From a virus (Duplodnaviria; Caudoviricetes): a DNA stretch of 64,000 bases. Below the pieces are notes generated by a model, which did no database searches, had not been told where the DNA came from, and saw nothing but the letters and a program-made list of their open reading frames with translations. Location of the stretch: positions 5,062 through 69,061 of IMG/VR virus record IMGVR_UViG_3300027419_000030; one strand, 5' to 3'. The position numbers and the translations under genes are program-made. Shown here piece by piece: positions 1,486 to 59,436 of the stretch. The stretch's first letter is position 1. Each line of letters begins with the position of its first letter.

Positions 1486-1955
1486 TTAATTACGGAAAAA
1501 TACTATTAATGCACGAAAAAGACAATCCATCAACTTTTTTACGTGCAACTTACTTGTTTAGCAACGTTGGAGATTTAGTTAAGTGCTACGGAAGAAGCAT
1601 TAGATTTCCAGAAGACAAAAAATTATATGAAGCAGAAATGAAATTAGCAATTGCAGATATTTTAATGCAGTGCAGAATGGGATTGGAAGAAAAAGGATAT
1701 AAACAAATAGAAATAAGCAAATTGGACACAAAAAATGAAACCATAGAAGAATCAATAAGAATCGTAGCATTTAATGCAGGAGGTATTGTATATGAAGATA
1801 AACACATGAGTTTACCGGGAAATCTAATAAGAATAATAATAGAATGTTATGTACTATGCGAATTACTAGGAGAAAAAGGAGAAGATATAGAACATTTAGG
1901 ATTTATACACGTAATGGAACGATTTCAAGAATTCGAAAGAAGAGGATGGAAATGA
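1482..1955 (+). CDS. Possible degenerate MazG-like all-alpha NTP pyrophosphatase
   Basis: NVGDLVK...EMKLAIADILMQ resembles the MazG ExGEL...ELAD pattern; lies between thyA and polB. Confidence 0.35.
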   Translation: MINYGKILLMHEKDNPSTFLRATYLFSNVGDLVKCYGRSIRFPEDKKLYEAEMKLAIADILMQCRMGLEEKGYKQIEISKLDTKNETIEESIRIVAFNAGGIVYEDKHMSLPGNLIRIIIECYVLCELLGEKGEDIEHLGFIHVMERFQEFERRGWK

Positions 1956-4498
1956 AAATACAAATTTTAGATGCAAATTACAAATACGACGAAAAAAGAA
2001 ATCCAATAATACAACTTTTTGGAAAACTTTCAAATGGAGAAAGCATAACAAAGAAAATAACAGGATTTAGACCCTATTTCTATTGCGGCCTCTCGCGAGA
2101 GGCCGCAGTAGAGGAAGTTAAAGACGAGTTAGTTAATATGGGAGTAGATATAGAAGAAGTACAGCGATACGAATCGATAGGCTACCAGACTTCTAAGAAA
2201 CTTATGCTTAAAGTAATAGCAATTGATCCTAAAGAAGTAAGATCACTAAGGGAACGAGTAAAAAAGATCAACGGAATAGAAGAAGTATTCGAAACGGATA
2301 TACTTTTCAAAAACCGTTTCATGATAGACAAAAATTTAGGCGGAATGAAGTGGGCAGAAGTACCAAACCAAGAAGAATTTACAGAATCAGAAATTAAATC
2401 ACTAGAAATAAAAGAAAACATGCCACTACGACTAATGAGCATAGATATAGAATGCCTACCAAAACAAAACGGCGCTATGCCAACATCATCAGAAGATCCT
2501 ATCATTCTAACGAGCCTCGCTTTCAGCGAGGCTTATAATGAAACAACGAACTTAGTTCTAGTAGGAAAATTAACCAACCAAAGTTCTGAGAATACGCTCT
2601 CGTTCGCAAACGAGAGCGAATTGTTGGAAAATTTAATGTTAATAATAGAAGATTACGATCCTGATATGATTGTAGGATATAACTCGAATGAATTCGATTT
2701 TCCATATATGGAAACACGCGCAAAAAAGCTAGGTATACGAGCTTCCATCGGGCGCGATGGAAGCTCTCTTTACACTAAGAAAATTGTACTTAACACGAAT
2801 GTAATGGTAACTGGTAGAGTCATTATTGATCTATTGCCTATTTTAAGAAGCTCTAATGAGGATAAGTACAAATTCAAAAGTTACACGCTTAAAAATGTAG
2901 CAAAAAAACTACTAAAGCTTGAAAAACTTGATGTGGACCCAAAAGAAATGAGAGGATTATGGGAAAATGAAGGAGAAGATTTAAAGAATTTCATAGAATA
3001 CTCTAGGAGAGATGCTGTAATCACACTGGACCTGCTACTAGAAATGAAATTAGTAGAAAGATATACAGAAATGGCTAAAGCAAGCGGATCACTATTACAA
3101 GACATAGCAAATGGTGGACAATCTGGAATGATTGAGAACCTATTGCTACGCAGGTTTAAATCACACGATAGAGTAGTACCACCAAAGCCAGATTCAGAAA
3201 CTTCAGATGAAAGATTCGATGATAGCGAATCACTAAAAGGAGGAGCAGTATTAGACCCAGAAAAGGGACTAGTAGAAGATATAATTATATTAGATTATAA
3301 ATCTCTATACCCAACATTAATGATGGCATACAATATATGCTATTCAACAATTTCAAACTCGCCTTCAGGCGAGTTTGAAGGAGTAAAAGCACCAATGGGG
3401 GGAGGAGAATTTGTAAAAACAGAAACATTGAAAGGAATAGTACCAGAAATTTTAGAAGAATTATTGGATAAAAGAATAAAAATTAAAAAACAAATGAAAT
3501 TGGCAACAGGAGCACAAAAGGAATTACTGGATGCAGAACAATATGCAATAAAAATACTTCTAAACAGCTTCTATGGGTATTCAGGATACCAGAGAGCTAG
3601 ATTATACGACCTAAGAATAGCAAACGCAGTAACTAGCTTCGGAAGAGAAAACATTAAAAAAACAACAGACTTAATAAACGAGATGGAAAAAATAGATGAA
3701 TATTCATTCAGAGTAATATACTCCGATACAGATAGCGTATTTATTAAAGTAATAAGCAAAGAAAACAAAATTTCATTGGAAAAAGCAGAAAAATTGGGAG
3801 ATATAATAGGAAAAGAAATAACTAAAAACTTGCCAGAACCAATGGAACTGGTGTATGAAACATTTGCAAGAAGAGGAATATTGCTTGCAAAGAAAAGATA
3901 TGCAATGTGGATTTTTGATAAAACAAGAAAAGGATATGAAGATAAATTAAAAATAAAAGGAATAGAAACAGTACGAAGGGACTGGTGTAATTTAACTTCA
4001 AACACACTAAAAACATGCTTAGATTTAATCTTAAAGGAAGGGAAAATAGCAGAAGCAATTGCATTAGCAAAAGAGAAAGTAGAAAGACTACAAAACTTTA
4101 ACTTAACCAAGGATTCGAGCTTGCTCGAAGACTTGGTGATCACGAAACGATATACGAAAGGAGCAAAAGCATATAAGAACAAACAGCCACATATACAATT
4201 AGTAGAACGAATGAAAGAAAGAGGAGACACACCACCAAACATAGGAGATAGAGTACCATACATTATAATACGTGGAAAATCTGGAGGTAAAAGACAAAAG
4301 GATCTATTTGTAAATCGCGCAGAAGATCCAAACTACATAATAAAACACGGAATTCAAATAGACACAGAATATTACATAAACAAACAATTGCTTCCACCAC
4401 TATTAAGAATATTTTCCACTTTAAACTCTGCCGCGCCAACAGGCGCGGCAGAGTTTGTAATAAAAGATAGAAAACAAAAAACTTTGGAGGATTGGTAA
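1952..4498 (+). CDS. polB: Family B DNA polymerase, archaeal cellular type, with 3'-5' exonuclease and C-terminal PIP box; no intein
   Basis: ExoI SIDIEC, ExoII GYNSNEFDFPY, DYKSLYP, KILLNSFYGY, YSDTDS, KKRYA, KGIETVRRDW, C-terminal QKTLEDW; start placed at the ATG overlapping the upstream TGA. Confidence 0.97.
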   Translation: MKIQILDANYKYDEKRNPIIQLFGKLSNGESITKKITGFRPYFYCGLSREAAVEEVKDELVNMGVDIEEVQRYESIGYQTSKKLMLKVIAIDPKEVRSLRERVKKINGIEEVFETDILFKNRFMIDKNLGGMKWAEVPNQEEFTESEIKSLEIKENMPLRLMSIDIECLPKQNGAMPTSSEDPIILTSLAFSEAYNETTNLVLVGKLTNQSSENTLSFANESELLENLMLIIEDYDPDMIVGYNSNEFDFPYMETRAKKLGIRASIGRDGSSLYTKKIVLNTNVMVTGRVIIDLLPILRSSNEDKYKFKSYTLKNVAKKLLKLEKLDVDPKEMRGLWENEGEDLKNFIEYSRRDAVITLDLLLEMKLVERYTEMAKASGSLLQDIANGGQSGMIENLLLRRFKSHDRVVPPKPDSETSDERFDDSESLKGGAVLDPEKGLVEDIIILDYKSLYPTLMMAYNICYSTISNSPSGEFEGVKAPMGGGEFVKTETLKGIVPEILEELLDKRIKIKKQMKLATGAQKELLDAEQYAIKILLNSFYGYSGYQRARLYDLRIANAVTSFGRENIKKTTDLINEMEKIDEYSFRVIYSDTDSVFIKVISKENKISLEKAEKLGDIIGKEITKNLPEPMELVYETFARRGILLAKKRYAMWIFDKTRKGYEDKLKIKGIETVRRDWCNLTSNTLKTCLDLILKEGKIAEAIALAKEKVERLQNFNLTKDSSLLEDLVITKRYTKGAKAYKNKQPHIQLVERMKERGDTPPNIGDRVPYIIIRGKSGGKRQKDLFVNRAEDPNYIIKHGIQIDTEYYINKQLLPPLLRIFSTLNSAAPTGAAEFVIKDRKQKTLEDW

Positions 4499-4500
4499 TT

Positions 4501-4565
4501 GCGCCGCGCCAGTTGGCGCGGCGCTTTTAGGAACCACCCGCACGCGAGGCGCGCGGGTTTTTTTT
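4501..4565 (+). terminator. Double hairpin followed by T-run downstream of polB
   Basis: GCGCCGCGCCA-GT-TGGCGCGGCGC, then imperfect CCCGC..GCGGG and T8; between convergent genes. Confidence 0.55.
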
Positions 4566-4870
4566 CACTTCGGCCAGATAAACCAAAATACGTATCTTGC
4601 AGCGAAATCGACAACTGTGAAACCACCAGCAAGAGCTATAAGAGCTTTGATGTTATTAGAATCTTTAACCAAATTCCAGCCACATTTTGAAACTCGGAAA
4701 AAAAGCAAATAATTATCGGTTTCACGTTGCTTTGATTCGATACGAGACATGCAACTACATACAATAGACATTTGATTAAGAATAGCTGTTAATATCTGCG
4801 GAACGTGTTCTTGATCTATAGTTGTAGGATCTATGCCTTCAAGGAAATTCGTAGTATGATTAGATGACAT
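4565..4870 (-). CDS. Hypothetical protein
   Basis: AGGAG RBS before ATG at 4870. Confidence 0.45.
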   Translation of the reverse strand: MSSNHTTNFLEGIDPTTIDQEHVPQILTAILNQMSIVCSCMSRIESKQRETDNYLLFFRVSKCGWNLVKDSNNIKALIALAGGFTVVDFAARYVFWFIWPK

Positions 4871-4884
4871 GGCAACTCCTAAAT

Positions 4885-5124
4885 TCACTTCTTTGCTCCA
4901 ATAAACGCACCCAACAAGAATATCGCGAGATCTTTGATAACATTAACATAAGTTAAATCGCGACCAAAATAAGCAGAAACAATATCAGTGAAAACGAGTG
5001 CAATCAACAGCAATACAAGCAATGAATAGAACCGGAATCCACTGGTTTTCCATCCATTGATATCCATAGTTCCTTCGACGAATGACACCTCAACAGGAAC
5101 ATCAAAGGGAATTTCTTCAGCCAT
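4885..5124 (-). CDS. Small two-TM membrane protein (holin-like or virion membrane protein)
   Basis: Two hydrophobic helices (FYSLLVLLLIALVFT; VIKDLAIFLLGAFIG) and basic C-terminus. Confidence 0.55.
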   Translation of the reverse strand: MAEEIPFDVPVEVSFVEGTMDINGWKTSGFRFYSLLVLLLIALVFTDIVSAYFGRDLTYVNVIKDLAIFLLGAFIGAKK

Positions 5125-5132
5125 ACAATGAA

Positions 5133-5348
5133 ATGAGAATTACAAGTATAAAAAATGAAGTGATCGAAAAAGTAAAGTATGAACTAATCGAACCACGCCA
5201 ACAAGATTTATTTCGGAGCTTGGAAGATCTAGCCAGCTTCAAGCAAGATGGCCGACGCATCGGCCAAAAGAAGGCCGAGGCCATAATAAATCTGCTGCAT
5301 TCGGAAAGGCCGAGCAAGAATGATCCACATATCAAGGAGAGAGCATGA
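5133..5348 (+). CDS. Small helix-hairpin-helix-like protein, possibly a fragment
   Basis: FRSLEDLA...RIGQKKAEAI resembles XPF/Hef/UvrC C-terminal HhH. Confidence 0.35.
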   Translation: MRITSIKNEVIEKVKYELIEPRQQDLFRSLEDLASFKQDGRRIGQKKAEAIINLLHSERPSKNDPHIKERA

Positions 5349-5360
5349 TTCCAAAACGCT

Positions 5361-7118
5361 TCACGTTACGACTCCGATCAAGTTAATCTCAGAAAATGCA
5401 ATCGTGTTGCCAATGGTGGTTTGTGGCACCACTTGTATCGAAATAATGTTACTGGTTTTCCAATCGGTGCCACCAGCAGCCAAAGCCCACATGTCGGCAT
5501 ACAAGTCGCACCATGCGCTAGTGTCGACGGCGACCGGATATCGCAATGGGGTGGTATAGTAGTAACTTGTGCTAACAGTTGGATGGGCCGCGGTAGTGTA
5601 ATAGATACGAAATCCTCCGTAGGTGGGATATCCATGAATATATTTATATTTAATATGCACATATCGCATGAATAACCCTGGATAGGAAGTGGTATTAATA
5701 TTGATTTTGGGGTACGCGCTCGTCGAGGACGTTAATTGTATTGTACCATTCGGCGCATACGTAATTGTAGCATCTTCCGCCACTAATCCAGTGCGATTTT
5801 GCCAGTCGAAATGCAATAACCTTTTTGTATATCTAGCGGTTTGAGTTACATCGTTGGGTATTCCAGACATATTAAAGTTGTTGCGAGAGATAGTATCTTT
5901 CCCAGATCCTCGTATAATTATAGAATATGGACGTTTGCACTCATTATCCTCGATAATGGTGGAATCGGCGTTAGAGCCCGTGATGATATGATATGGCACG
6001 GTGGATGAAGCACTTCCACCGAAATGGCATCCCCGGATAATATTTTCAAATCCACTGTTTACGGTGGCGATGGGATGTCCACCATCCACTCTCTGCACAT
6101 CGCACCTGTCGATGAGATTATTCGCAGGGCCAGAAGCATTCGTTCCACCGGAGATATTGATGTTATATGCAGTCCCGACATCTTCAAAATAACTTCGATA
6201 GATTGTGTTATATGATGGCGCATAGGTAGACAATGATGCATTTTTCAGGATTAACAAATTGCCAATATCGTTACCCTCCAGTTCCATGTAGCTGAATGAG
6301 TTCGAAGTACCTTCCTCGATCAAGAGTCCATAGTCATTATCATTGGCCATGCAATGCAAAAATGTATTTTCTATATTAGCTCCATATTTCATGGATGTTA
6401 ATTTCATCGCATATATATTATCCCTGAAATATGAGTTCTCAAATGAATTCAATATGCAGAAATCATCGAGTATGAGTCCATTTCTGCAATTATAAATTTT
6501 TACCGAATCAAGGATCTTGGTTCGGATGGTGTAATTCAATCTGACCCCATCGACAGACTTATCAATCCCATTAATGCCGAGATGCTTAATTTCCATTCCA
6601 CGCCAATCACTATTAGTTGTGCCGTTAAATCTACAATCGAATATAGGTCTGGTAAGTCCAGTACCTTTCGCGATGATCGTGCCGGTGTAACCCTGGCCCT
6701 CAAATATCATCTGTTTATATCTATATTTTGACTGGTTTATCGAGGTACTGCAATAGAATGTCCCGTATCCGATATCAAGCTTGTTTACGCCAGTCGTCTC
6801 ATAAGCATGCATTGCCAATTTGCCGAAGTCATCGGTCTGATTAATTAAGCACCCGGTCGCATTAAACAACAAATACATACCGGAGCGGGATATGACTTGG
6901 CAACTGACCGGCTTGGTGGAATTATAATCGTCTAACAAGCGGCCATTGAAGTCGATATCACTACCAGAGGCATCGAAAGTCAAATTACTGACATTTTTTA
7001 TGTCATGACCCTGCATATCATTATCACCAATGAAAGTAGTACCGGGCTGCGTCCATGCACTAACAATTCCAAACATCGATACGACGATTGATAATAACAC
7101 AACAAGTTTTTTAATCAT
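5361..7118 (-). CDS. Signal-peptide-bearing parallel beta-helix (pectate-lyase-like) protein, spike or surface protein
   Basis: N-terminal MIKKLVVLLSIVVSMFGIVSA; repeated I/L-x-N-C/S beta-helix coils; aromatic-rich C-terminal beta domain. Confidence 0.7.
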   Translation of the reverse strand: MIKKLVVLLSIVVSMFGIVSAWTQPGTTFIGDNDMQGHDIKNVSNLTFDASGSDIDFNGRLLDDYNSTKPVSCQVISRSGMYLLFNATGCLINQTDDFGKLAMHAYETTGVNKLDIGYGTFYCSTSINQSKYRYKQMIFEGQGYTGTIIAKGTGLTRPIFDCRFNGTTNSDWRGMEIKHLGINGIDKSVDGVRLNYTIRTKILDSVKIYNCRNGLILDDFCILNSFENSYFRDNIYAMKLTSMKYGANIENTFLHCMANDNDYGLLIEEGTSNSFSYMELEGNDIGNLLILKNASLSTYAPSYNTIYRSYFEDVGTAYNINISGGTNASGPANNLIDRCDVQRVDGGHPIATVNSGFENIIRGCHFGGSASSTVPYHIITGSNADSTIIEDNECKRPYSIIIRGSGKDTISRNNFNMSGIPNDVTQTARYTKRLLHFDWQNRTGLVAEDATITYAPNGTIQLTSSTSAYPKININTTSYPGLFMRYVHIKYKYIHGYPTYGGFRIYYTTAAHPTVSTSYYYTTPLRYPVAVDTSAWCDLYADMWALAAGGTDWKTSNIISIQVVPQTTIGNTIAFSEINLIGVVT

Positions 7119-8020
7119 TTAAATGCACCCCATTTAAAGTTAGCATTACTACTTAGAGTAACGCCACCAACAAATCTAACAACAAACTCAGTAGAAGTAA
7201 TATCAGAATCAAGGATCTGAATAGGAGCCTCACATCCAAGGCCAGGAGAAACAGAAACATGAAGAGGAACAGAACCACATAAATGGGTAACATGTACATG
7301 ATCTTGTCCAGCTAAAATTGTACCAGAACCATTATTAAATGCGCCGACAAAAGCACACCAAGAAATTTCGGCATCACCAGCAAGAATAACACCACCAACA
7401 AATCTGATAATAAATTCGGTATCAGTTATTTCAGAATCGAGGATTTGAACAAATGCTTCACATCCAAGACCAGGAATGAATGAAATAAAATTCGGAATTG
7501 AACCACATGAATGCAAAACATGAACATGATCGGAACCAGCAGGAATAGTAGCAATACCAGGAATAATGGAAGTAATTGCGGCAGCAGAAGGACCAGGAAT
7601 ACCAGCATAATTTTTCCAAAGACCAACAAAATCAGAAGCTATGGGAGGAGAAAGGGGAGAAGCTGTAGTCTTAAATGCAACATAGTCAAGACCTGATCCA
7701 GGTACAAGGGAAAAATCAGTACCAATATCATCGGAAGCAAATGCAACATAAGAATAAGAAGAGGAACCAGAAGAACCGGGAACACCTTGACCTCCTTGAA
7801 CGCCTTGAGTACCTTTATAATTTTTCCAAAGTCCTACAAAATCGCCAACCGCCGGAGTAAGAACGGAATAAGAAACTTTGAGAGCTACATAATCAAGAAG
7901 AGGATCAAACGTCGTAGTAAAATCAGTTCCAACATCATCAGAGGCCCATGCAATATAGAGATAAGCAGGAGCACCAGGAGCACCCTGAGCTATTGTAACT
8001 GGATTACTAAAGAGCACCAT
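7115..8020 (-). CDS. Fibre/receptor-binding protein with internal duplications and short collagen-like linker
   Basis: Two copies of YxAx-ASDDxGTDF...DFVGLWKNY, GTQGVQGGQG linker, two C-terminal copies of DHVHV..CGS.P...PGLGCEA..QILDS; start placed at ATG 8020. Confidence 0.65.
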   Translation of the reverse strand: MVLFSNPVTIAQGAPGAPAYLYIAWASDDVGTDFTTTFDPLLDYVALKVSYSVLTPAVGDFVGLWKNYKGTQGVQGGQGVPGSSGSSSYSYVAFASDDIGTDFSLVPGSGLDYVAFKTTASPLSPPIASDFVGLWKNYAGIPGPSAAAITSIIPGIATIPAGSDHVHVLHSCGSIPNFISFIPGLGCEAFVQILDSEITDTEFIIRFVGGVILAGDAEISWCAFVGAFNNGSGTILAGQDHVHVTHLCGSVPLHVSVSPGLGCEAPIQILDSDITSTEFVVRFVGGVTLSSNANFKWGAFK

Positions 8021-8076
8021 ATAAAAGAAAGTAGAGATCCCCAAATTTAAATACCTTCGCAATACAAAAGAAATAT

Positions 8077-9546
8077 GTGCCTCTACCAATTGACCAAGGA
8101 AACGCATTGCCATCGATGATACAAGAATTTGATGGATTTTCTACGGACACGGTAGACACGAATAGGTGGGATACGCCAACAGTTGTTGGATCGACGGCGA
8201 TCCAACAATCGGGGGGAGAACTTGTTTTTTCAAATAATGGAACAGGAACAAAAGGAATTTCTTACGTAGAAACTATACGAAAATTCGGAAAAAATTGGAG
8301 AAAATCAGTAGATCTTAAATTGGCAACAACAACTGGCGCAAGTGGAGAAATTTCATTAGTTTTATACAAGGACGCAAACAACTACATCAAAATGGGACCG
8401 TATAAATCTGCTACAGTAGATTGTAATGCATATCTAAGGTATAAAGTAGCAGGTAGCGCAGAACAATTAGTACCTTTAACTTCAGATGTAGTAAACAATG
8501 CAGAATTTAGCACATATACATTCGGAATAATAAGCGATACCATACTTTGTTATTATGATGGAATTTTAGTAACTTCTATTCCATTTGGAACAATGTTTAA
8601 TTTCACAGCAAGAATAGAAGCAGGGACAGGAGCAAATACGGACACATTAAGTGCAAAAGCAGATGATTATGAAACATTAAATCATTTAGATACGCTTCTG
8701 ATTACAATAGGGGCAATAGTAAAAGATATTCATGATACTATGGGAACTTCTATGGTAACAGACATTAGCGGAAATATAACTTTAACAGATACTACAGAAG
8801 TGTTCGTAACTTTTACGCAAGCAACCTACGGAACCAAGTTTCGCATAAATCTTTTTGGAGATTTAGAAGGGCAAAGGATAGATTCGGCGGGTTTAACTCC
8901 AAACGGCGGAGCTTTCGTAGATTATACTGCAATGGCTAACAATTTAGTGTCAAATTCCATTCCATTAGTAAATACTCCAACAGCGGGAGATTGTTTCTAT
9001 TTCAAATCATTAACACAATTCCATTCTTTAGATGTTTACATGGAAAGTGGCGCAGGAAACACGGATAATACAATAATTTGGGAATATTGGAATGGTTCAG
9101 CATGGGCAACACTAACGCCTACATCCGATGGAACCGTATATAATACATATAAATTCGGAAAAAGTGGTAGAGTAATTTGGGCAACTAATACCACGCTCTT
9201 ATCTGGTTACTACCAGATAAGAGCAAGAGTAACTACGGCAGGAACTTCAAAGCCTGTAGCAACGCACATTCAAGCTAATGTAGATGGAGAAACAGGATTT
9301 GATGCATTAGCAAGCGCTTTTAGTACACTTACGCTTTCGATTTATCGAAAGCGTGGTGATGGTTCATATGCATCAATGCCAACAGAAGTAGGATTACCAT
9401 ACACACAATGCATATTATACAGAAATTTAGCAATAACCGATTTACCGGCATGGTCCGATATAAAAATTGGCCTGAAGCTGTCGGCTGCGCCGACAGCTCA
9501 AATAACTATTCCATACAACGGATTTATTGAGACGATAGAAGTTTAG
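8077..9546 (+). CDS. Virion beta-rich protein (lectin/ConA-like domains), oriented opposite to neighbours
   Basis: Thr/Gly/aromatic-rich all-beta composition; GTG start; divergent from 8020. Confidence 0.55.
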   Translation: MPLPIDQGNALPSMIQEFDGFSTDTVDTNRWDTPTVVGSTAIQQSGGELVFSNNGTGTKGISYVETIRKFGKNWRKSVDLKLATTTGASGEISLVLYKDANNYIKMGPYKSATVDCNAYLRYKVAGSAEQLVPLTSDVVNNAEFSTYTFGIISDTILCYYDGILVTSIPFGTMFNFTARIEAGTGANTDTLSAKADDYETLNHLDTLLITIGAIVKDIHDTMGTSMVTDISGNITLTDTTEVFVTFTQATYGTKFRINLFGDLEGQRIDSAGLTPNGGAFVDYTAMANNLVSNSIPLVNTPTAGDCFYFKSLTQFHSLDVYMESGAGNTDNTIIWEYWNGSAWATLTPTSDGTVYNTYKFGKSGRVIWATNTTLLSGYYQIRARVTTAGTSKPVATHIQANVDGETGFDALASAFSTLTLSIYRKRGDGSYASMPTEVGLPYTQCILYRNLAITDLPAWSDIKIGLKLSAAPTAQITIPYNGFIETIEV

Positions 9547-9730
9547 TACCAAATTTTTTAAACAATTCATCAATATCTACTCCATAGGGAGTAGATTTTT
9601 CAACAGACTCAAGAATAGATTTAGAAATCTCTAACTCCTCTGGCGAAGCCAGAGGAGAAGAAGTAATTTTATTGGAAGGAACTACGATACCGAACGGAGG
9701 GAAGGATCGCGGGACAGATGGTTGAGACAT
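9524..9730 (-). CDS. Hypothetical protein
   Basis: Fills the gap after the large fibre gene; overlaps its end. Confidence 0.35.
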   Translation of the reverse strand: MSQPSVPRSFPPFGIVVPSNKITSSPLASPEELEISKSILESVEKSTPYGVDIDELFKKFGTKLLSSQ

Positions 9731-12498
9731 ATATGTCCTTTAGTGGTAATAGTATAAGTTTCTTGCTGCAAAATGCTCTCAGCACCTACACCAGAGGGAT
9801 TGAGAATACTATCACCAGAACCACCAGATCCAGCGTTACCAATATCTCCTACGAGAGCATCAGGAGATGAGTAAAACATCAAATCCGCAGTATCTTTATC
9901 AGTACCATTCCGGGGATTATAGAGATACAGGAACGTAAATCCAGAAACTACAAGATTTTGATAAACTTGATCGGTAACTGGATAATAATGCCAAAAAACA
10001 TTAGGATATAGCATTTCAGTATCATCATCAGGGAACAAGTCAACAGCTTCGCTTCCAACTGCCGGAACCACAGTCCCGGCAGGGGTAATATAGCGATAAA
10101 CAGGATGATATACACTGGTGTGAGCACCATACCCTTTACCGGACCATATGAAAACGATGTTTCCTTTATTATCTATGAATGATTGACCTGAGAATTGATT
10201 ATATCCAGACGCAGCCTTATTTGGACTAAGATTTGTAGCTGCGCTCCAAATCTCGGTAACAACGGAGCGTTTTCGGTAGAAAACTTCTTTGATAGCAGTA
10301 CCTGCATCAGTCCATTTACAGTAAAACAGAAAAACATTACAATCCTTGTCAGTAATAATGTTTCCAGGAAATCCTACATACGAATCAGTATCAACATTTT
10401 CAACAGCACCCCAAGAACCACCAGAATACTTACAATATTCAAGAGATTGGTTAGTAGTAGCATTAAACCACGCCGTATGGATATCGCCTTGCGAGTCGAT
10501 ATCCATAGAGGGATAAAGCATGTGGTTATCGGAAGTTGTTAGGTCTACTCTAGCTCCAAGGGAGCCGGAAGTGAGTTTTTTGTAACAAATCCTGGCTCTG
10601 CCGAGATTAGTGTTAAGACCCTGAGCAGCCCACAGAAAATGCAAATTATCATTACCATCAGCCAAACAAACTCCTTCAAATGAAGGATAATACTTTTTTA
10701 TCAAACTTATATTTACGACAGCAGCTTGAACACCGAGAGGAGAAATGTATCTATAAAATAAATCATTACCATGCCGAGTGCAATCTATTTGAGTATCAAC
10801 GCGCCAAGTTCTAGGCATGATTCGAGAAACTAGATTGGAATATGGATTAAATGCGATATTATAATTATGCGTATGAGAACATGTAGCATATTGTGTATTA
10901 TAACCAGATAAACTAATTCTATTATTGCACCCACCGGAGGTGGGTGCAATAATAGAAGTAACAATATCATCATGGTCATGAGTAAGAACACCACTGAGAT
11001 CAGAATATGTTGATTTGCCGACAAAATGCTTTCCATTAAGAGTTTCACCAGTAGCAGATAAAGATGTCATTGAAGTAAGCAAAGATGCGCTTCCAAGCAA
11101 TAAAAGAGCATTTTGAGCAATAACGGTTAGAGGAGAAGTAACTTTACCAAGAATAAGACCATATGCAGGAGGATTATTAGAAGCATAACTATTATAAAGT
11201 GATCCAGAATGCTCGTGAGAACACTTAGAAACTTGACTACCAGACGTACCGCCAGATAAACAATACTGATTACCATTAAAATTATAAGTTACAAGATGTC
11301 TATGCTGCAAAGCACCAACAACAGTTCCAACATCATCAGAACAATAAATAAAATAGTTATCCTGATCAGAATAGCGCGAATATCCAACGGGAACGTCAGA
11401 ATTAAATGGAACTATTATATCGGCAGGAAGAGATGTAGGAATTCCATAATAACGGAGCAATTTAAGAGATCTGCTAACAGGAAGAGATGAAGCATTTCCA
11501 ATACTGGTATTATGAGCGGTATGATGCCAACCAAATATAGCAGAATCGCCGCCATAGCCTTCCCATAGCTTATCAACACTACCATTGACTTCTCCACCGG
11601 AAATGGAAGCTCCATGCTGATGAAGATTGTATGCATCAGGATCGCTACCAAGAGCAGGATAGGTAGTACCTTCTTCGCCTCCAAGGAGACGATGATAACC
11701 TACGCCACCAGCGCCAGATACCAATTCAAAGCCATCGGGAGTAGAACCGCCACAGAAAAGCCAATAAGTAGGAAAAGTGACAAGATCGTTTCTAGTATAC
11801 GTTATGTGAATGCCATTATTCTTGTCGCAAGTGATGGAAGGCATGATATAATGCTGTCCATCGTCGTTATCGACGATGGTAGCAACCCACTTTTCGCCAC
11901 CATTAGTAGATTTTAGGTAAACTACGCGAGAAAGACCAGAAATAATATAAGAACAGACTGCATGAATAGAACCATCCGGAGTTTTTACTATATGCCTGGC
12001 AGAAACAGGAAATAAAATCATCTGAGATTGCATTAATGAACCAGAAAGCCAGGATGTGATGGCAGGAAATTGGATGGCAGCCGCAATAATAACATTGGTA
12101 GAAGCAATATCAGTAACTACATTCTTATGCCAATCATCCGACAAATTGTCATCGCTTTGCGCAGGAAGATCCACAGAGGCCCCTATATCCTGAACGAAGG
12201 GAGCATCACCAACAAACACTTGCTGGACACCAGCAGGACCAATTGAAGCCTTATGCCATATCTCGGACTCATTGAGGCCTGTAGCATAATTAGAAAGCCA
12301 CGCCGGAACAGGCTCACTGGCTAAATCGAGAACACGTTGATCAACTGGAATAAGTTTAGAGGAAACAAGAGCAGGATCAATAGCAGTCCTATAATTTAAG
12401 ACAGGATCATTGGTAGGATTAGTAATAATTATTGCAGAAATTTCTTTAGACTCAGAAAGAGATTGAGCCATCTTAGTCTGAACATGAGCCTGATCCAC
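9682..12498 (-). CDS. Large spike/fibre protein with beta-propeller-like segments and repeated His-x-His needle modules (probable start 12471)
   Basis: S-x-N/D-G-G-x-x-W BNR-like motif; multiple HxH motifs (HQH, HRH, HEH, HDH, HTH) as in trimeric phage fibre tips; D-x-x-G-x-I-H propeller repeats. Confidence 0.65.
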   Translation of the reverse strand: MDQAHVQTKMAQSLSESKEISAIIITNPTNDPVLNYRTAIDPALVSSKLIPVDQRVLDLASEPVPAWLSNYATGLNESEIWHKASIGPAGVQQVFVGDAPFVQDIGASVDLPAQSDDNLSDDWHKNVVTDIASTNVIIAAAIQFPAITSWLSGSLMQSQMILFPVSARHIVKTPDGSIHAVCSYIISGLSRVVYLKSTNGGEKWVATIVDNDDGQHYIMPSITCDKNNGIHITYTRNDLVTFPTYWLFCGGSTPDGFELVSGAGGVGYHRLLGGEEGTTYPALGSDPDAYNLHQHGASISGGEVNGSVDKLWEGYGGDSAIFGWHHTAHNTSIGNASSLPVSRSLKLLRYYGIPTSLPADIIVPFNSDVPVGYSRYSDQDNYFIYCSDDVGTVVGALQHRHLVTYNFNGNQYCLSGGTSGSQVSKCSHEHSGSLYNSYASNNPPAYGLILGKVTSPLTVIAQNALLLLGSASLLTSMTSLSATGETLNGKHFVGKSTYSDLSGVLTHDHDDIVTSIIAPTSGGCNNRISLSGYNTQYATCSHTHNYNIAFNPYSNLVSRIMPRTWRVDTQIDCTRHGNDLFYRYISPLGVQAAVVNISLIKKYYPSFEGVCLADGNDNLHFLWAAQGLNTNLGRARICYKKLTSGSLGARVDLTTSDNHMLYPSMDIDSQGDIHTAWFNATTNQSLEYCKYSGGSWGAVENVDTDSYVGFPGNIITDKDCNVFLFYCKWTDAGTAIKEVFYRKRSVVTEIWSAATNLSPNKAASGYNQFSGQSFIDNKGNIVFIWSGKGYGAHTSVYHPVYRYITPAGTVVPAVGSEAVDLFPDDDTEMLYPNVFWHYYPVTDQVYQNLVVSGFTFLYLYNPRNGTDKDTADLMFYSSPDALVGDIGNAGSGGSGDSILNPSGVGAESILQQETYTITTKGHICLNHLSRDPSLRSVS

Positions 12499-12555
12499 GC
12501 TTCAAGTATCTGCGCGGCAGATACTTGAAGGTTTGTGAGATAAAAAAAAAGTAAA

Positions 12556-12855
12556 TTACTTCCAGAAACTGCCGAGATGAGATAACGCAGTCTGGAAGAC
12601 GGAAACGATACCACGGTAAGCGGGCTTACCAAGTGCGGCATATGCTTCAGCAAAGCCGGAATTCAATTCATCGCCAGTAATCTGATCATCTTCAAGAATT
12701 GCATTAATTTTAGAAAGACCTTCTTCAGCATCAAGAAGCATTGACTTAAATTCATCCTTCTGCTCTTCAGTCATCTTATTAAACTGCGCAGAAATGGAAG
12801 CTGCGCCAAAGTCTTCGAACAATCCAGCCATAAGCATAAATACGTATGAAAACAC
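12556..12855 (-). CDS. Hypothetical alpha-helical protein
   Basis: Clean ORF with C/G-ending codon bias of structural genes. Confidence 0.5.
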   Translation of the reverse strand: MFSYVFMLMAGLFEDFGAASISAQFNKMTEEQKDEFKSMLLDAEEGLSKINAILEDDQITGDELNSGFAEAYAALGKPAYRGIVSVFQTALSHLGSFWK

Positions 12856-12876
12856 TTAAACGTTTCGGAGGAAAAA

Positions 12877-13014
12877 ATGAACGAAGAAGAAATAAGAGAA
12901 AGATGTGGATGTGGAGGAGAAATGGGAGGAACCAATAGAGAAGGAGAACAGAGAGAAATGCCAAAAACAAGCACATGCGCATGCGCATGCGACTGCATAG
13001 AAGATCCGCACTAG
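12877..13014 (+). CDS. Small Cys-rich protein (45 aa), below ORF-track cutoff
   Basis: GGAGG RBS + ATG; MNEEEIRERCGCGGEMGG...TSTCACACDCIEDPH; followed by hairpin. Confidence 0.55.
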   Translation: MNEEEIRERCGCGGEMGGTNREGEQREMPKTSTCACACDCIEDPH

Positions 13015-13019
13015 CCGCA

Positions 13020-13181
13020 CTATCCGCGCTCATGCGGGAGCGCGGATAAGGGAACTTTTCGTACAAGCGGATGAAATATCAGTTTCTCTACTCCTGGTTC
13101 ACGCGAAACGGGAACCATGACGGGATTTACCTCACCAATCACATTGGAATTGATTTTTTTAGTTATTTCAGTAGTTTTCAT
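13020..13181 (-). CDS. Small hypothetical protein (53 aa)
   Basis: GAGGT RBS; ATG overlaps stop of upstream beta-helix gene. Confidence 0.4.
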   Translation of the reverse strand: MKTTEITKKINSNVIGEVNPVMVPVSREPGVEKLIFHPLVRKVPLSALPHERG

Positions 13182-14152
13182 GCAACATACCTCGGAATAA
13201 ACGACGATCCTTGGAAATGCGGGTATGAGAGAGGCGAATAATCGTAGTTGTAGTAGCATTGAACCGGAACATCGGCTATTCCGTCGTGATTTACATCTTG
13301 ATACCAACCAGAATACCCAAAGAAGTTATTATTTATGAAATTTCCACTAACTTGCTGATCAGAATTCATATCACAGATATCAATAGAAGAATTGGCAAAA
13401 AACATGTTACCGACTATAGTATGAAGCCCATTGGCTTTTACTTCAAAGTAAATTCCGTTATAACACGAGTCAAAAACATTCTTTTTAATAAGAAATCTTT
13501 GAGCATTATTCAAGTTGCAACCTTGCCCGGCAGTAGCTACAGTTCCAAACTTCTCAATATAGTTTTCCTCTATAACACCGTCTACTGAAGGATTTAATGC
13601 ACCATCGCAACGTACGCCAATCGTATTTAAACCATAAAGCCCACTCAAATGATTATTGCGAAGCAAAATCTTGTCACAATCATTTAAAAGAACAGCCGTA
13701 CGTTGAGCTAATCCATCAGAATTTACTTCTACATAACAATCATGTATTTTATGTCCAGGACCAGTAGCCTCCAATGCATTAGAATTGGTAGATACGAGTG
13801 CAATACCTTCGATTTCTGAATATCCCACTTGCAACGCAAGTGGGACACCAGAAAGAGGAGAAATTTGAACTTTATCTACTCCGGCCTGAACTACTCCGTG
13901 AATAATTACATTTTCTTTATCTATTACGACATTTTCCTGATAAGTTCCACTTTTAACCCAGATTTCCATCCAAGATTCGAGAATATCTGTAGCACCAGCG
14001 AAAGTTTCCTTAGGGCGATCCCATGAATAACCATCATTTTTATCGCTTGCATTTGATGCACTTTGATCTACGTAGATCGAAGTGCTTCCACCTTTAGAAA
14101 AATTAAGTTTTCCACTGGCATTTCTAATAGATGAGATACCTTTAGCTGGCAT
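13178..14152 (-). CDS. Parallel beta-helix (NosD/pectate-lyase-like) virion protein
   Basis: YVDQSASNASDKNDGYSWDRPKETFAGA, VKSGTYQENVVI and repeated I-x-x-N-x-F coils. Confidence 0.75.
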   Translation of the reverse strand: MPAKGISSIRNASGKLNFSKGGSTSIYVDQSASNASDKNDGYSWDRPKETFAGATDILESWMEIWVKSGTYQENVVIDKENVIIHGVVQAGVDKVQISPLSGVPLALQVGYSEIEGIALVSTNSNALEATGPGHKIHDCYVEVNSDGLAQRTAVLLNDCDKILLRNNHLSGLYGLNTIGVRCDGALNPSVDGVIEENYIEKFGTVATAGQGCNLNNAQRFLIKKNVFDSCYNGIYFEVKANGLHTIVGNMFFANSSIDICDMNSDQQVSGNFINNNFFGYSGWYQDVNHDGIADVPVQCYYNYDYSPLSYPHFQGSSFIPRYVA

Positions 14153-14155
14153 TTA

Positions 14156-14620
14156 TTAAATCACCAACTCAGTAGTAAGAATCTGCTCATCTAAGTAGGA
14201 AAGTACCTTCTTTATCATAGGAGAAGTAATAAACTCATCAACTTCTTTATCGGTCCACTCACCAGGGGTGGCGTCTAGGGAAAATACCAAATTAGCATTA
14301 GAAGACCATAATAAACAGGCAAAGATTCTAGTTTCACCTAACTGATAATTAATAAATTCATCAGGGCCTAATATCGCAGGCTTGGAAGATCCTTTTTCAT
14401 TATGAATAGTTCTGTAATACAGATAATTATCTCCAGAACCACCAGCGTGGTTATGAATCATCAGGCTCTTAGCAGGAACTTTGAATCCTTGAGATTCATC
14501 TCCGATGAAATTACAAAAATAAATCTCGCCATCACCGCCTTGAGTAAACTCGTGGCGAGTGACAACGAAATGACCTTGATTATATCTACTGGATATCGCC
14601 ATCGAGGTAAATCCTACCAA
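14156..14620 (-). CDS. Probable small beta-sandwich virion protein
   Basis: In structural operon; beta-strand pattern. Confidence 0.45.
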   Translation of the reverse strand: MVGFTSMAISSRYNQGHFVVTRHEFTQGGDGEIYFCNFIGDESQGFKVPAKSLMIHNHAGGSGDNYLYYRTIHNEKGSSKPAILGPDEFINYQLGETRIFACLLWSSNANLVFSLDATPGEWTDKEVDEFITSPMIKKVLSYLDEQILTTELVI

Positions 14621-14948
14621 GGAACCTGAAATTAGCTATAACGCTGGCACCGGCTCCATAGCAAGAAATGGCCTGTCCTGGCGCGATAGGATAATTACAG
14701 ATAGGAATGCCTTTAGGAGCATAGAAGGTAGACACTGAATTTGCATCTTTTCCGCCAATCTCAAGCCGAGAATCACCACCTTCAGATACGATCATAAAAA
14801 ATTCAGCATCAGGAGGAACTTGAATAGCCTGCGCATATCCATTATTAACCAACCTAAAGCCACCAATATCCCTTAGAGCCGTTTCACGGCGCGTAGGAAC
14901 GCGCCGGGAAAGGGGAGTTTCAGGCTCGATCAAATCTTCTCCGAACAT
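14586..14948 (-). CDS. Probable small beta-sandwich virion protein (single jelly-roll-like)
   Basis: 120 aa with alternating hydrophobic pattern; directly downstream of capsid-like gene. Confidence 0.4.
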   Translation of the reverse strand: MFGEDLIEPETPLSRRVPTRRETALRDIGGFRLVNNGYAQAIQVPPDAEFFMIVSEGGDSRLEIGGKDANSVSTFYAPKGIPICNYPIAPGQAISCYGAGASVIANFRFLGRIYLDGDIQ

Positions 14949-14951
14949 GGT

Positions 14952-15935
14952 CTAAAGCACTCCTGCCTGGATGGATTTCGCGGTCTTGGGGTAATCAGTA
15001 ACCAATTTCTGTGCAGCACTGCGGGCAACTGCGGAATTAAACGGCAAATTCCACTTGATGTGGTCGGCTACATTCAATTTTCTAGTGCCATAGATAAAAC
15101 CACATGGAACAGTATTTGCACCTGTACCAGTTGCAGATTCTACACGCACTTCAAGTGATTTGATACACGGAACGTAGCATTTCATGTAAAATTGATCAGC
15201 CATGCCAGTTACATCGAGTTTCATATAACTTGCATCAATATCACGATCAACGACAACAAATGTATCTGATGCAGTACCAGCAGCAAAACAGGAAGTGTCA
15301 AACATAACTCCAAGAAGAACAATCAATTGAGAATTCGGATTGGGAATATTAATCTTGGAACCACCAATGATAGATTCGGCACCAGCGGCCATAGCAGTCA
15401 TATTCTTTTCAACGCAAATTACTTCATCAAACATTTTTGCAGGATCTATATTAAGCAAGCTTTGATGATATGGGATAGTTCCAAGAGAAAGGTTATCTTC
15501 GAGCTTAAGCATTTCGGAAATTGCGACTTCATCAGTGTCTAGCTGTATTTTTTCTCGGAGCTTATCCACGGGGAGAGGCCTTCTGAAAGTCATATTCCAG
15601 CGAGAGCGGACATTGGTAGTAGGACCGCCTGCGGTCATAATTCCAGTGAAATCGAGAGTTTCCCTGGCAGTAATTTTAACGTACCTGCCAGGATCGCGCA
15701 AAGTTTGAGCATTAGATCTGATTCGCGCACGTTCGGAGGAATCTGCGGAGATTACGAGATCAAGATTTGCCGTCTGAGTAAAAACCTCTGGATTCTCTAC
15801 AACGCATCTCCTATCATTGAGTAGATAGGATGCAATTTGTTCGCCGCTAGTGCTTATAGAATCTTCATTGATGCATTCTATAAGCATCTCAGGGAAATAT
15901 TTTGTCTTCGCAGGATCAATTATAGGATTAGCCAT
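14952..15935 (-). CDS. Capsid-like all-beta protein (candidate second or minor jelly-roll capsid protein)
   Basis: 327 aa, two beta-rich halves each followed by a short helical segment; first gene of a structural operon; fold is inference only. Confidence 0.4.
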   Translation of the reverse strand: MANPIIDPAKTKYFPEMLIECINEDSISTSGEQIASYLLNDRRCVVENPEVFTQTANLDLVISADSSERARIRSNAQTLRDPGRYVKITARETLDFTGIMTAGGPTTNVRSRWNMTFRRPLPVDKLREKIQLDTDEVAISEMLKLEDNLSLGTIPYHQSLLNIDPAKMFDEVICVEKNMTAMAAGAESIIGGSKINIPNPNSQLIVLLGVMFDTSCFAAGTASDTFVVVDRDIDASYMKLDVTGMADQFYMKCYVPCIKSLEVRVESATGTGANTVPCGFIYGTRKLNVADHIKWNLPFNSAVARSAAQKLVTDYPKTAKSIQAGVL

Positions 15936-16048
15936 ACACTAGAACAGAAAGCCGATTAGATTTAAGGGGAATAGAAACAGACAGAAACAAACAATGAAAA
16001 GTAGATACAATCAAAACAGTTAAATATAAGAAAAACATAGTATTAGGC

Positions 16049-16321
16049 ATGGCATCATTAGGAAGAATGAAGATTTACAACCAAAGTGGCACATTCCGAG
16101 CAACGATGCCTAAAGAATGGATAGGATCAAACAGAATTAAATCGAAAGATGGATTGGACATAATAGTAACACATGCAATAATAGTATTGCCGCCGAGAGA
16201 ATTAAATAACGAGGAAATGGAGGAGGTAGTACGGGACTTCAGACAGCTAATAAAAGCAAGATCGATACTTCTAGCCTCAAAGACCCAAGAAACGACCCAA
16301 AATACACCGAAGGGCTTGTAA
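16049..16321 (+). CDS. AbrB/SpoVT-like transcription regulator
   Basis: GTFRATMPKEWI...I..KDGLDI pattern; divergent from structural operon. Confidence 0.55.
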   Translation: MASLGRMKIYNQSGTFRATMPKEWIGSNRIKSKDGLDIIVTHAIIVLPPRELNNEEMEEVVRDFRQLIKARSILLASKTQETTQNTPKGL

Positions 16322-16496
16322 AAACAATAGAAGAGCTAGAGAAAGTGTTAAATAGTTTGAAAAAGAACGAGATTGTACTTTATAACGCGAGCAAGGGGCC
16401 GCTACTTATGAAGAATAATCCTAGAAACAGATGCGAAAAAGGAAAAGAAACAGGATTAGTCAGAATTCAGATAGATTACATGGAGATGAATTAAAA

Positions 16497-16937
16497 ATGG
16501 CAGCACAAGGAACTTCAGCACAGCCTTACATTCCAGGAAGCGCAAAGACGGCAGTACCGCAGAAGCAAGTAACTCAGACAGTAGCAAAGAAGGAGCTTAC
16601 ACGAGATTTGCTTGTGAAGGCGGTTACAGATGAGAAGAATCTGCGAACAATCGCACAGGAAACAGGAAATACCATTCATGATGTGAGAGAGGCACTTAAG
16701 TCAAACGGACTTAAGACGGCATCGATGAAGGACGGCGCAGGAAAACTCGGTTTCCGAGAACTTAACAAGGTCTTCAGCACAATCCAGGCAGGAACCGGGA
16801 ATGTAGCCGGAATTGTAGCCGCAACGGGCCTAAGCGAAGTAGTAGTCAAGGTAGCCATCAGAAAGCTAAAGCGCGACGGAGATATCATAGACTCCCTCTC
16901 CGTTCCACAGGCTGCTGCTACGCAGCAGTCAATGTAA
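16497..16937 (+). CDS. Protein with two HTH/wHTH motifs
   Basis: LRTIAQETGNTIHDVREAL and VAGIVAATGLSEVVVKVAIRKLKRDGDI; start placed at ATG 16497. Confidence 0.55.
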   Translation: MAAQGTSAQPYIPGSAKTAVPQKQVTQTVAKKELTRDLLVKAVTDEKNLRTIAQETGNTIHDVREALKSNGLKTASMKDGAGKLGFRELNKVFSTIQAGTGNVAGIVAATGLSEVVVKVAIRKLKRDGDIIDSLSVPQAAATQQSM

Positions 16938-17027
16938 AAAAAAACGGAACGACAGAACGAACAGAAGAGGAACAAGCAAATTTTCTACTTTTAAGCGCCT
17001 CGCGCAAGCGAGGCGCTAGGAAGTTAC

Positions 17028-17333
17028 ATGGAAAATCCTGATAGCACGAAAGCAGTTCAGGACATGATGTTATTGCCTTATGCAAAAAAGATAGAAAAGA
17101 AGATTTCTATTACGAAGAAACGAGAAACTACTTCGAAAACACTACTTACGGCACAGGGCATAAGGCATGGAGAGAAATGCTGTCGGTGTGGCCTGAATTG
17201 CGAAGTAAAAAGGAAAGAATCGGTAGAATATGATCGAATCTTCAATGAAGATCCGATATATAAACTAGAAACATGCCCTAAACAGGGAAAACTTGAAAAA
17301 TTGCGAATAAAAAAGAAGGGAAGGAAGAAGTGA
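17028..17333 (+). CDS. Hypothetical protein, possible Zn finger
   Basis: CCRC.LNC...C motif. Confidence 0.45.
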   Translation: MENPDSTKAVQDMMLLPYAKKIEKKISITKKRETTSKTLLTAQGIRHGEKCCRCGLNCEVKRKESVEYDRIFNEDPIYKLETCPKQGKLEKLRIKKKGRKK

Positions 17334-17338
17334 TTTAA

Positions 17339-17620
17339 ATGGAACTTGAAGCGAAATTGGATGGAGTAGAAAGAAAGGAAAAGCTGATTCAGAGAAAAGA
17401 TGAAGCTACGGGACAGAAAGTAGACGACAAAGAAGTTTTTTACACAGCAAAATTCGCGATGAAGAAGATAAAACTAGAAAAAGATTCAGGAAACGTAAAA
17501 GAAGGAACTAGCGACCCTTGGCTGCGAATAACAATCTCTAGCTACGATGAAAAAGTATTCGAAAGCTTCAAGGACGCTAAAATGGGAGATCCTGTATTAA
17601 TCTCAGTGGATTTAGTCTAA
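17339..17620 (+). CDS. Hypothetical protein
   Basis: Clean ORF between hairpins. Confidence 0.5.
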   Translation: MELEAKLDGVERKEKLIQRKDEATGQKVDDKEVFYTAKFAMKKIKLEKDSGNVKEGTSDPWLRITISSYDEKVFESFKDAKMGDPVLISVDLV

Positions 17621-24540: not shown

Positions 24541-24933
24541 ATGAACAAGAAGCTTTTAATCTTAATCGCCATCGTCGCGACGATGGCGATAAGCATGGGA
24601 ACGCCATTAGACGCACTAAATAACGCGGGAAAAGTACAAAACGTAGGAGAAATTGACCTGAGAAACGCCAATCCAGCAGCATTCAACTCATCTGCATTCG
24701 AGAATGATAATGTAATGAAAGGAAAGCACTTCACATATTGGGATGACGCAAACGCAGAGGCTTTGAGATCAGAGAAAGCAAATTCTGATTGGGCAAATGC
24801 TACAACGAAGCTGTTTGATTCAACAAATGCGGGCTACGGAAATACTTCGCCTGTAGAATTGTCGGAAATAGTAGCACCAGAAGTTTCAGTGGAAGAATTT
24901 ATAGCTTCGCTAAACAGGAATGGAGGAAATTAA
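24541..24933 (+). CDS. Secreted or membrane-anchored hypothetical protein
   Basis: Signal peptide MNKKLLILIAIVATMAISMG. Confidence 0.6.
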   Translation: MNKKLLILIAIVATMAISMGTPLDALNNAGKVQNVGEIDLRNANPAAFNSSAFENDNVMKGKHFTYWDDANAEALRSEKANSDWANATTKLFDSTNAGYGNTSPVELSEIVAPEVSVEEFIASLNRNGGN

Positions 24934-46173: not shown

Positions 46174-46355
46174 AACTCGTATTTATGCGGTGCGAAGGAG
46201 TAACGCACCGCATATATCGAGCGAGGGATAGCAGCCGCATCGTAAAGCAAGGAAACCAATGCGACAACAACCTAAACGTTTTTTCAGGATATAAATTTAA
46301 CTATTAGCATCAGGCGACCACAAGTATTATAAAGAAGTATTGCGAATAAGTATTC

Positions 46356-46784: not shown

Positions 46785-46865
46785 AAATTGAAGTAGAAAC
46801 AGGAAACGTAGAAATTAAAATAAAGAAAATATTAGGAACAGAAAAAGAGAATTTGAGGTAATAGG

Positions 46866-54394: not shown

Positions 54395-54446
54395 GAATCA
54401 AACAGCCTAGCCGCGCCTGTTGGCGCGGCTAGGCTTTAAGGAATCA

Positions 54447-57616: not shown

Positions 57617-57621
57617 TATTT

Positions 57622-58990: not shown

Positions 58991-59025
58991 AAGTTATATG
59001 TAGTAGTTCCCAATATATAATACTT

Positions 59026-59169: not shown

Positions 59170-59214
59170 AGGATGGGGACTTCCCGCTTCGTCCTTTCCA
59201 ATCCTAGGAGTTAA

Positions 59215-59397: not shown

Positions 59398-59436
59398 CCG
59401 CGCTCGCCTATTGGCGAGCGCAATTTAGGAGGAAAT

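Follow-up and report, generated by a model that had tools for sequence, protein, structure and literature searches.

The window analyzed here is a 64,000-nucleotide stretch (bases 5062 to 69061) of the 69,061-bp IMG/VR virus record IMGVR_UViG_3300027419_000030, called G0 below, and its family B DNA polymerase gene, polB, carries a series of palindromes written into intact coding sequence. The record is rated complete, with a 66-bp terminal repeat and a G+C content of 38%. No close relative of G0 was found among deposited phage and archaeal-virus records. The nearest cellular relatives of the viral PolB are Methanothrix/Methanotrichaceae PolBs, with 52-54% identity, and since the closest cellular enzymes come from this group, the host is probably Methanothrix. 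Several related sequences were available for comparison. Genome G2 (69,399 bp) has a PolB that is 92% identical in protein and about 90% in DNA, and genome-wide it is ~87% identical to G0, i.e., 13% diverged. Genome G1 (67,553 bp) has a PolB 66% identical. L072 is an 8-kb contig of a third strain that spans the 3' half of polB at 94%. The further relatives P0003 and P0004 have PolBs about 60% identical, and a fourth PolB protein, P0002, was compared as a peptide only.

The polymerase gene and the seven hairpins within it, six perfect and one imperfect, are listed below in window coordinates, with the palindromes given without a strand.

1952-4498, plus strand: polB, intact gene for a family B DNA polymerase (Pfam DNA_pol_B 1.5e-106, exonuclease domain 6e-33)
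2084-2107: perfect 24-bp palindrome encoding CGLSREAA, present in G0 only
2513-2533: palindrome with a 9-bp stem and 3-nt loop, encoding SLAFSEA, directly past Exo I
2595-2618: palindrome with a 10-bp stem and 4-nt loop, encoding TLSFANES, identical in G2 and absent in G1
2739-2766: sixth perfect palindrome, with a 12-bp stem and 4-nt loop, over RASIGRDGSS
3352-3379: palindrome with a 13-bp stem and 2-nt loop, in a length-variable loop of the palm domain
4106-4137: imperfect seventh hairpin, 13 pairs and 2 mismatches, with a perfect core at 4113-4128
4423-4456: palindrome with a 15-bp stem and AACA loop, in the linker before the C-terminal QKTLEDW, 42 nt upstream of the polB stop

The gene has the expected motifs, namely Exo I (DIE), motif A (DYKSLYPT), motif C (YSDTDS), and the C-terminal QKTLEDW. 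Its start is more likely the ATG at 1952, which overlaps the upstream stop as ATGA, or position 1946, rather than 1844. As RNA, the polB hairpins fold at -16 to -31 kcal/mol, with z values of -5 to -8. An earlier note on this DNA had described five of the palindromes, and all five are real in both position and stem, while the sixth perfect palindrome at 2739 and the imperfect seventh had been overlooked in that first reading. Its remark that the hairpins use codons otherwise rare in the gene was likewise borne out: the hairpins hold 3 of the 4 CTC codons in polB, both GCC codons (2/2), both GCG codons (2/2), and 5 of the 13 GAG codons, and G+C at third codon positions is 0.64 within hairpins compared to 0.24 elsewhere. 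The copies it cited outside polB also exist, i.e., a perfect 26-mer at 24565 and hairpins on gene 3' ends at 21066, 54155, 55446, and 60240; the one at 56357 is imperfect in G0 and perfect in a relative.

For the genome count, a perfect hairpin was defined as having a stem of at least 9 bp and a loop of at most 6 nt. The complete 69-kb genome has 55 such hairpins, compared to 1.1 ± 0.9 in dinucleotide shuffles. Coding sequences hold 28, compared to 1.9 ± 1.5 in 100 synonymous-codon shuffles, and polB holds 6, compared to 0.07 under the same shuffling. A comparable palindrome density in synonymous recodings, which had been named beforehand as the outcome that would speak against the proposal, was not seen. 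Chance, codon usage, or an assembly artifact is a practically negligible explanation: it can call only on the small intrinsic palindromic potential of some peptides, such as I/V-G-R-D, and whereas both kinds of shuffle reject the first two, the artifact is contradicted by the recovery of the same hairpins in independent assemblies from other samples. Hairpin density is 0.67 per kb in G0, 0-0.1 per kb in host-type contigs (a few up to 0.3), and about 0.07 per kb in other PolB-encoding viruses. The hairpin load is a trait of this virus lineage, since host-type contigs and other PolB viruses have about a tenth of that density or less. A host-type signal taken over by the virus is ruled out, as Methanothrix-like contigs are almost devoid of such hairpins.

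A codon alignment of polB from G0, G2, G1, and L072 with seventeen PolBs shows how the palindromes sit in the protein. At 2513, 2595, and 2739 the codon count equals that of G1 and of host-type PolBs. The palindromes at 2084, 3352, and 4423 lie in length-variable loops, where no insertion is peculiar to the hairpin carriers; the 4423 site differs from relatives by one codon. At the hairpin positions, G1 and the host enzymes show AT-rich or otherwise unremarkable sequence, matching in length and without a palindrome; none of the polB palindromes is present in the 66% relative. At the three sites of equal codon count, one arm holds the family residues and the other is its exact reverse complement and off consensus. 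The 5' arm at 2513 keeps S-[ML]-A, while its 3' arm departs from the consensus (EPE/NQK); G2 has a single synonymous mismatch here (CTA). The 5' arm at 2595 keeps the viral T-[IL]-S. At 2739 it is the 3' arm that represents the conserved D-G-S-S, and the 5' arm is altered to pair with it. The polB palindromes were made in place, as the earlier note had proposed in preferring codon choice to insertion; they add no codons and are young. They are perfect inverted repeats in an intact coding sequence, with both arms translated and no gain in length. Hairpins in the genome tend to be either perfect or absent: stems end sharply, with pairing past the first mismatch at 32%, near random, and the counts of broken pairs are bimodal (0-1 or 3-13).

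The polB palindromes belong to a larger hairpin family, and the hairpins outside polB that enter the argument first are the following.

4501-4524, no strand: intergenic hairpin 3 nt past the polB stop, with three compensated pair changes among three close strains
4537-4565, plus strand: imperfect 9-bp hairpin followed by T8, between convergent genes, terminator-like and unlike the perfect palindromes
24565-24590, plus strand: perfect 26-mer at codons 9-17 of a small gene (IAIVATMAI), its position kept down to G1 with a different stem
54404-54435, no strand: intergenic hairpin sharing a 20-nt core with polB 4423 in flipped orientation
60240-60269, plus strand: example of the boundary class, in which the hairpin supplies the last codons, followed by TAG-GAGG and the next ATG

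In G0, G2, and G1 alike, about half of the hairpins lie in genes, and the rest are packed into the ~10% of the sequence at gene boundaries. Boundary hairpins stand 2-16 nt past a stop codon or form the last codons of a gene, and they end 1-8 nt ahead of GGAGG and an ATG, with no T-run. A hairpin lies within 40 nt of 24 of the 86 gene 3' ends. Only 1 of 50 hairpins has at least five T residues within 8 nt downstream (plus strand). Since GGAGG and ATG follow without a T-run, the boundary hairpins are intercistronic elements within operons and not terminators. Terminators are rejected for the family at large, polB has no terminator-like site on its plus strand, and the earlier statement that the signal is no simple terminator stands. 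At 55138-55163, in a hairpin conserved in G2, the loop ATGA contains the stop codon of gene 54640-55152 as well as the start codon of gene 55149-55478.

The stems are for the most part GC-rich, in a genome that is AT-rich. Of the 84 GC-rich hairpins, 61 have 5'-C...G-3' as the closing pair and 3 have the reverse, and 5' arms are C-rich. Common 10-mers are found in 16 hairpin pairs, compared to 0.7 expected from composition-matched random palindromes. A different picture is seen at window positions 36983-47537, where four very large genes have the strongest codon bias of the genome: these ~10 kb contain three perfect hairpins, all AT-rich and all in the first gene, in contrast to polB and to gene 8077-9546. 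Rfam at gathering score gave no match in the 64-kb window. Neither a Y1 transposase (PF01797), a tyrosine integrase (PF00589), RNase III, nor Hjc was recognized in the complete genome; Pfam gave only a weak Cas4-like match and a staphylococcal-nuclease-like domain, and Pfam and PHROGs jointly indicated a Myb plus LAGLIDADG/HNH-like protein. Nuclease-like proteins of the virus are encoded at window positions 35510-36724 and 46866-47537.

The sequence relatedness among hairpins bears on the idea that they arose by in-frame insertion of small mobile palindromic elements, or by gene conversion from other hairpin copies. The hairpins do form sequence-related subfamilies, and the core of 4423 (CGCGCC-AACA-GGCGCG; 20 nt shared, including the loop) is common to the intergenic hairpins 54404 and 55945. 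The peptide of P0002 at the same site is different and could likewise be encoded by a palindrome, judged from the peptide only, and 18 of the 24 bases at 2084-2107 are unlike those of the 92% relative. The last point loses force since 2084 lies where G0-G2 identity climbs from 69-75% to 83-87% and to ≥90% further on: the stretch is diverged as a whole, and therefore ordinary recombination may explain the difference there. The five internal palindromes (all but 4423) share no core with any other hairpin, one arm retains family residues, there is no hairpin-specific gain in length relative to relatives and host PolBs, and the complete genome yielded neither a transposase nor an integrase. We judge mobility or conversion very improbable as an account of the family, and for polB itself the codon alignments rule out insertion of a mobile element. 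The hairpin at 4423 is most likely one of the boundary type that is embedded in the C-terminal linker.

Comparison of the close strains shows that hairpins are both conserved and lost, and in ways that differ by location. Retention was assessed with a neutral model run at half rate, which is conservative and allows for ascertainment. Under this model 19 hairpins are intact in G2, compared to 9.6 expected overall. Boundary hairpins account for 9 (3.4 expected) and are strongly conserved, with compensated pairs; the 10 intact hairpins in coding sequence (6.1 expected) are not a significant excess. Likewise, 11 of 27 hairpins in coding sequence are gone in G2, compared to 1 of 19 boundary hairpins (Fisher p = 0.008). 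Of the changed stem pairs between G0 and G2, 20 of 105 are still Watson-Crick. The polB gene of G2 has an AT-rich 13-bp coding palindrome of its own at G2 positions 8241-8272 (approximately window 4003-4034) that is absent in G0; gains therefore go on independently in sister strains.

These comparisons also bear on the possibility, which we consider rather unlikely, that the in-gene hairpins are functional signals under selection, with coding subordinate to them. They might act on RNA, as internal processing or decay sites, translation pauses, or binding sites for viral proteins, or on DNA, as priming or loading sites for a PrimPol/PolB replisome or as cruciform targets. Hairpins retained in both G0 and G2 have stems that are 5.8% diverged, compared to a background of 13%, and third codon positions that are 4.9% diverged, compared to 25%, while loops are 29% diverged. 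That statistic, however, is conditioned on retention, and for all stems without the filter divergence is 12.8%, against 13.1% for the background. Compensated changes occur within coding sequence at 4423, 4113, and 3352. Three in-gene hairpins hold their position as far as G1: 24565 has a different stem there and 35790 a shorter one, both in well-supported genes, and 9635, which lies in a weakly supported open reading frame of 68 codons, has an identical stem; the intergenic hairpin at 12500 is also kept. The enrichment in polB, the closing-pair preference, and the shared cores would suit signals as well, and virus specificity would fit a virus-encoded reader. The polB hairpins, on the other hand, have no positional conservation in G1 and no shared sequence, and the codon phases of hairpins in coding sequence are near uniform (12/11/8), with no clear bias. 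Tolerance of wobble of the kind expected for RNA is not seen either, there being no excess of sense-strand G.U in decaying stems (A.C 11, G.T 2) or at stem ends, although this count is confounded by the A-rich coding strand, which the skew of A.C over G.T mismatches probably reflects. In the complete genome none of RNase III, Hjc, integrase, or Y1 transposase was recognized. The suggestion in the earlier note that the palindromes may be required inside genes is not supported: all those of polB are absent in G1, that at 2084 is absent in G2, and conservation in coding sequence does not reach significance.

Template-switch mutations are known to leave loop inversions, multi-base compensated changes, preserved length, and perfect stems formed in one step (PMC8794818; PMC5453318), and footprints of this kind are present among the hairpins. 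The loop at 4423 is AACA in G0 and TGTT in L072, an inversion that comes along with two compensated pairs; that at 3352 is TC in G0 and GA in G2; and that at 29314 is TGT/ACA. The 3352 palindrome is heavily different in the third strain, with part of the changes compensated, and the imperfect hairpin at 4106-4137 has one compensated synonymous pair change there. At two hairpins outside polB a stem was gained or perfected in G0.

10917-10957, minus strand: 19-bp coding palindrome in G0 only, polarized by three relatives including G1
11858-11879, minus strand: quasi-palindrome with 6 of 9 pairs in two relatives, perfect in G0 through four substitutions, all towards G or C

At 10917, the three relatives read T-V-T-V-x-K-T-S-G-G-C-N-S-R-I, and in G0 the segment V-T-V-x-K has become S-I-I-A-P, the coding sequence for which is the exact reverse complement of the conserved downstream arm (GGCN[SN]RI), with length unchanged. 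At 11858, all four substitutions improve pairing. The template-switch palindromization that the earlier note had raised as an alternative is supported by three loop inversions, multi-pair compensated changes, and one polarized arm overwrite.

With moderate confidence, we therefore favor the view that these are coding palindromes generated in situ and kept perfect by arm-to-arm copying, filtered by the protein and hardened in G+C, within a virus-specific hairpin family that has a conserved intercistronic niche. While the viral DNA is being replicated, an inverted repeat that is nascent or imperfect would have one arm copied from the other, by template switching or arm-to-arm conversion. Such copying would write a perfect reverse complement over adjacent codons at unchanged length, and the events that survive selection on the protein would be those overwriting the less constrained arm. 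The same copying would maintain the perfection of the arms, yield compensated changes, and sometimes flip the loop. Stems may move towards G and C through selection for stability or through GC-biased correction, and the selected niche of the family would lie, within operons, between a stop codon and the ribosome-binding site that follows it. The five internal polB copies are then most likely tolerated by-products rather than required signals.

Several observations weigh against this view or narrow it. Arm overwrite is seen directly for one hairpin outside polB, 10917, and for polB we infer it from which arm keeps the consensus; moreover, the putative template arm at 10917 has five strain-specific changes of its own, above the background prediction. 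A strict scan for reverse-complement copies between G0 and G2 recovered only the loop inversion at 29314, because G0-G2 divergence is too high for exact matching. The gene polB is hairpin-rich compared to the coding-sequence average (6, compared to 1.24; Poisson p = 0.002), and its retained stems are nearly unchanged between strains, which would fit function too. The GC-rich stems, the closing pair, and the shared cores suggest selection or sequence-specific recognition, not blind mutation. To judge by their position alone, the boundary stems most likely act on the polycistronic transcript, in processing, stability, or translation insulation.

A stronger form of the functional alternative is that the perfect GC-rich stem-loops are a private signal that is read, and whose two arms are kept identical, by a viral protein or the PrimPol/PolB replisome, with the polB copies as working sites. 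We hold this to be unlikely. If it were true, the protein sequence would be bent to fit a structural code, and the polB copies might be, for example, RNA processing or decay sites or priming or loading sites. The window has two primase-polymerase-type genes, one for a 996-residue PrimPol with a CHC2 zinc ribbon (47634-50624) and one for a 261-residue protein with an NrS-1 polymerase helix-bundle domain (61421-62206).

Hairpins might also be recombination junctions or hot spots that bound exchangeable gene modules, the in-gene ones being scars or promoters of recombination. Of 54 breakpoints of G0-G2 homology, 20 lie within 40 nt of a hairpin, compared to 3.4 for random positions; the palindrome at 2084 sits at the jump in G0-G2 identity, and a variable island starts exactly at 4501. 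The excess vanishes, however, against random gene ends (15.1 expected, maximum 26), no recombinase was recognized, and most polB hairpins are in sequence that is uniformly 90-95% identical. We give this account very little credence. The island at 4501 occupies window positions 4525-8091, or 3.6 kb, in G0, and the corresponding island in G2 (8761-17429) has 8.7 kb of unrelated sequence. In L072, a 620-bp segment (1327-1946) is inserted directly after the polB stop, before that strain's copy of the 4501 hairpin. A 1.6-kb segment at window positions 58687-60268 is present in G0 and absent in G2; the perfect hairpin 60240 is at its right edge, and hairpin 58481 lies ~180 nt ahead of its left edge, while the empty site of G2 has one hairpin.

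The C(UUCG)G hairpins of phage T4, the REP/BIME elements, and the 3' inverted repeats of chloroplasts are intercistronic, have no U-tract, and serve mRNA stability or processing, not termination. The intercistronic stem-loops of phage and bacterial operons prefer a 5'-C...G-3' closing pair, and small loop inversions are known in chloroplast hairpins. The boundary hairpins of the virus resemble these stem-loops in lying between cistrons, lacking a U-tract, and having the same closing pair, and they may likewise act on mRNA stability or processing. Those systems are extragenic, however, whereas about half of the virus hairpins are in coding sequence. REPs are, furthermore, conserved sequence families mobilized by RAYT, and the virus hairpins are heterogeneous, with PF01797 not found in the complete genome. 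The palindromes of the Mimiviridae "hairpin rule" (Priet et al. 2015) are reportedly AT-rich, lie at gene 3' ends, and undergo both cleavage by a viral RNase III and polyadenylation; they are said not to have been described in coding sequence. The present family is likewise a virus-specific palindrome set at gene 3' ends, but hairpins are found at only 24 of 86 such ends and no RNase III gene was found. The RPE of Rickettsia and the GC clusters of yeast mitochondria are also GC-rich hairpins in AT-rich genomes, at gene ends and translated within genes; unlike these, which add length and occur as family copies, the polB palindromes add no codons and five of the six are unique local sequences. 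An integron attC-like site is not indicated, with PF00589 absent from the genome and no conserved GTTRRRY-type core in the hairpin list.

The closest likeness is with the mitochondria of hairworms (Nematomorpha), where coding palindromes have been described, arm conversion or template switching was proposed, and a parasitic rather than functional nature was suggested (2019, PMC6649704). In both, perfect inverted repeats lie in functional genes with both arms translated, are perfect or absent, and are gained and lost between relatives. The virus differs in its shorter stems (9-19 bp, compared to up to 284 bp), which are mostly GC-rich in an AT-rich genome, in that half of the family is intercistronic, and in the lack of a clear phase 3 depletion. 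It is also an archaeal virus, and one in which loop inversions and a polarized one-arm overwrite are seen directly. The footprints are the same as those of template-switch mutations (Monttinen and Löytynoja 2022, PMC8794818; Löytynoja and Goldman 2017, PMC5453318). That literature concerns ribosomal RNA, microRNA, and human mutation clusters, with rare events, whereas in the virus the density shapes a whole genome, including protein-coding sequence, and is coupled to G+C enrichment.

The compact, complete viral genome allows perfect hairpins to be traced from creation to loss among three close strains and an outgroup: five codons are overwritten in one step, a quasi-palindrome becomes perfect, stems are maintained through compensated changes and flips of the loop, and some hairpins disappear. 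Coding palindromes, described before in hairworm mitochondria, are thereby extended to an archaeal virus, which also offers a clean natural case for the idea that stems are built and maintained by template switching, not by paired point mutations. It also shows the tolerance of an essential, host-derived replicative polymerase, in which conserved segments (the strand after Exo I and GRDGSS) are written as palindromes. For annotation, the family is a warning: where an AT-rich viral gene has a GC-rich island or an odd peptide, the origin can lie in the nucleic acid. Should the hairpins be read by a viral factor, they would represent a new kind of gene-punctuation system in archaeal viruses.

Two further observations concern the relatives and the neighboring genes. 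The polB of P0004 (59% PolB identity; 69,682-bp contig) encodes 1253 residues and includes the intein-splicing domain PF14890, according to Pfam matches. In the window, positions 57526-58413 encode a 295-residue pentapeptide-repeat protein (Pfam 1.3e-54), possibly a DNA mimic, and a hairpin at 57527-57551 covers its first codons.

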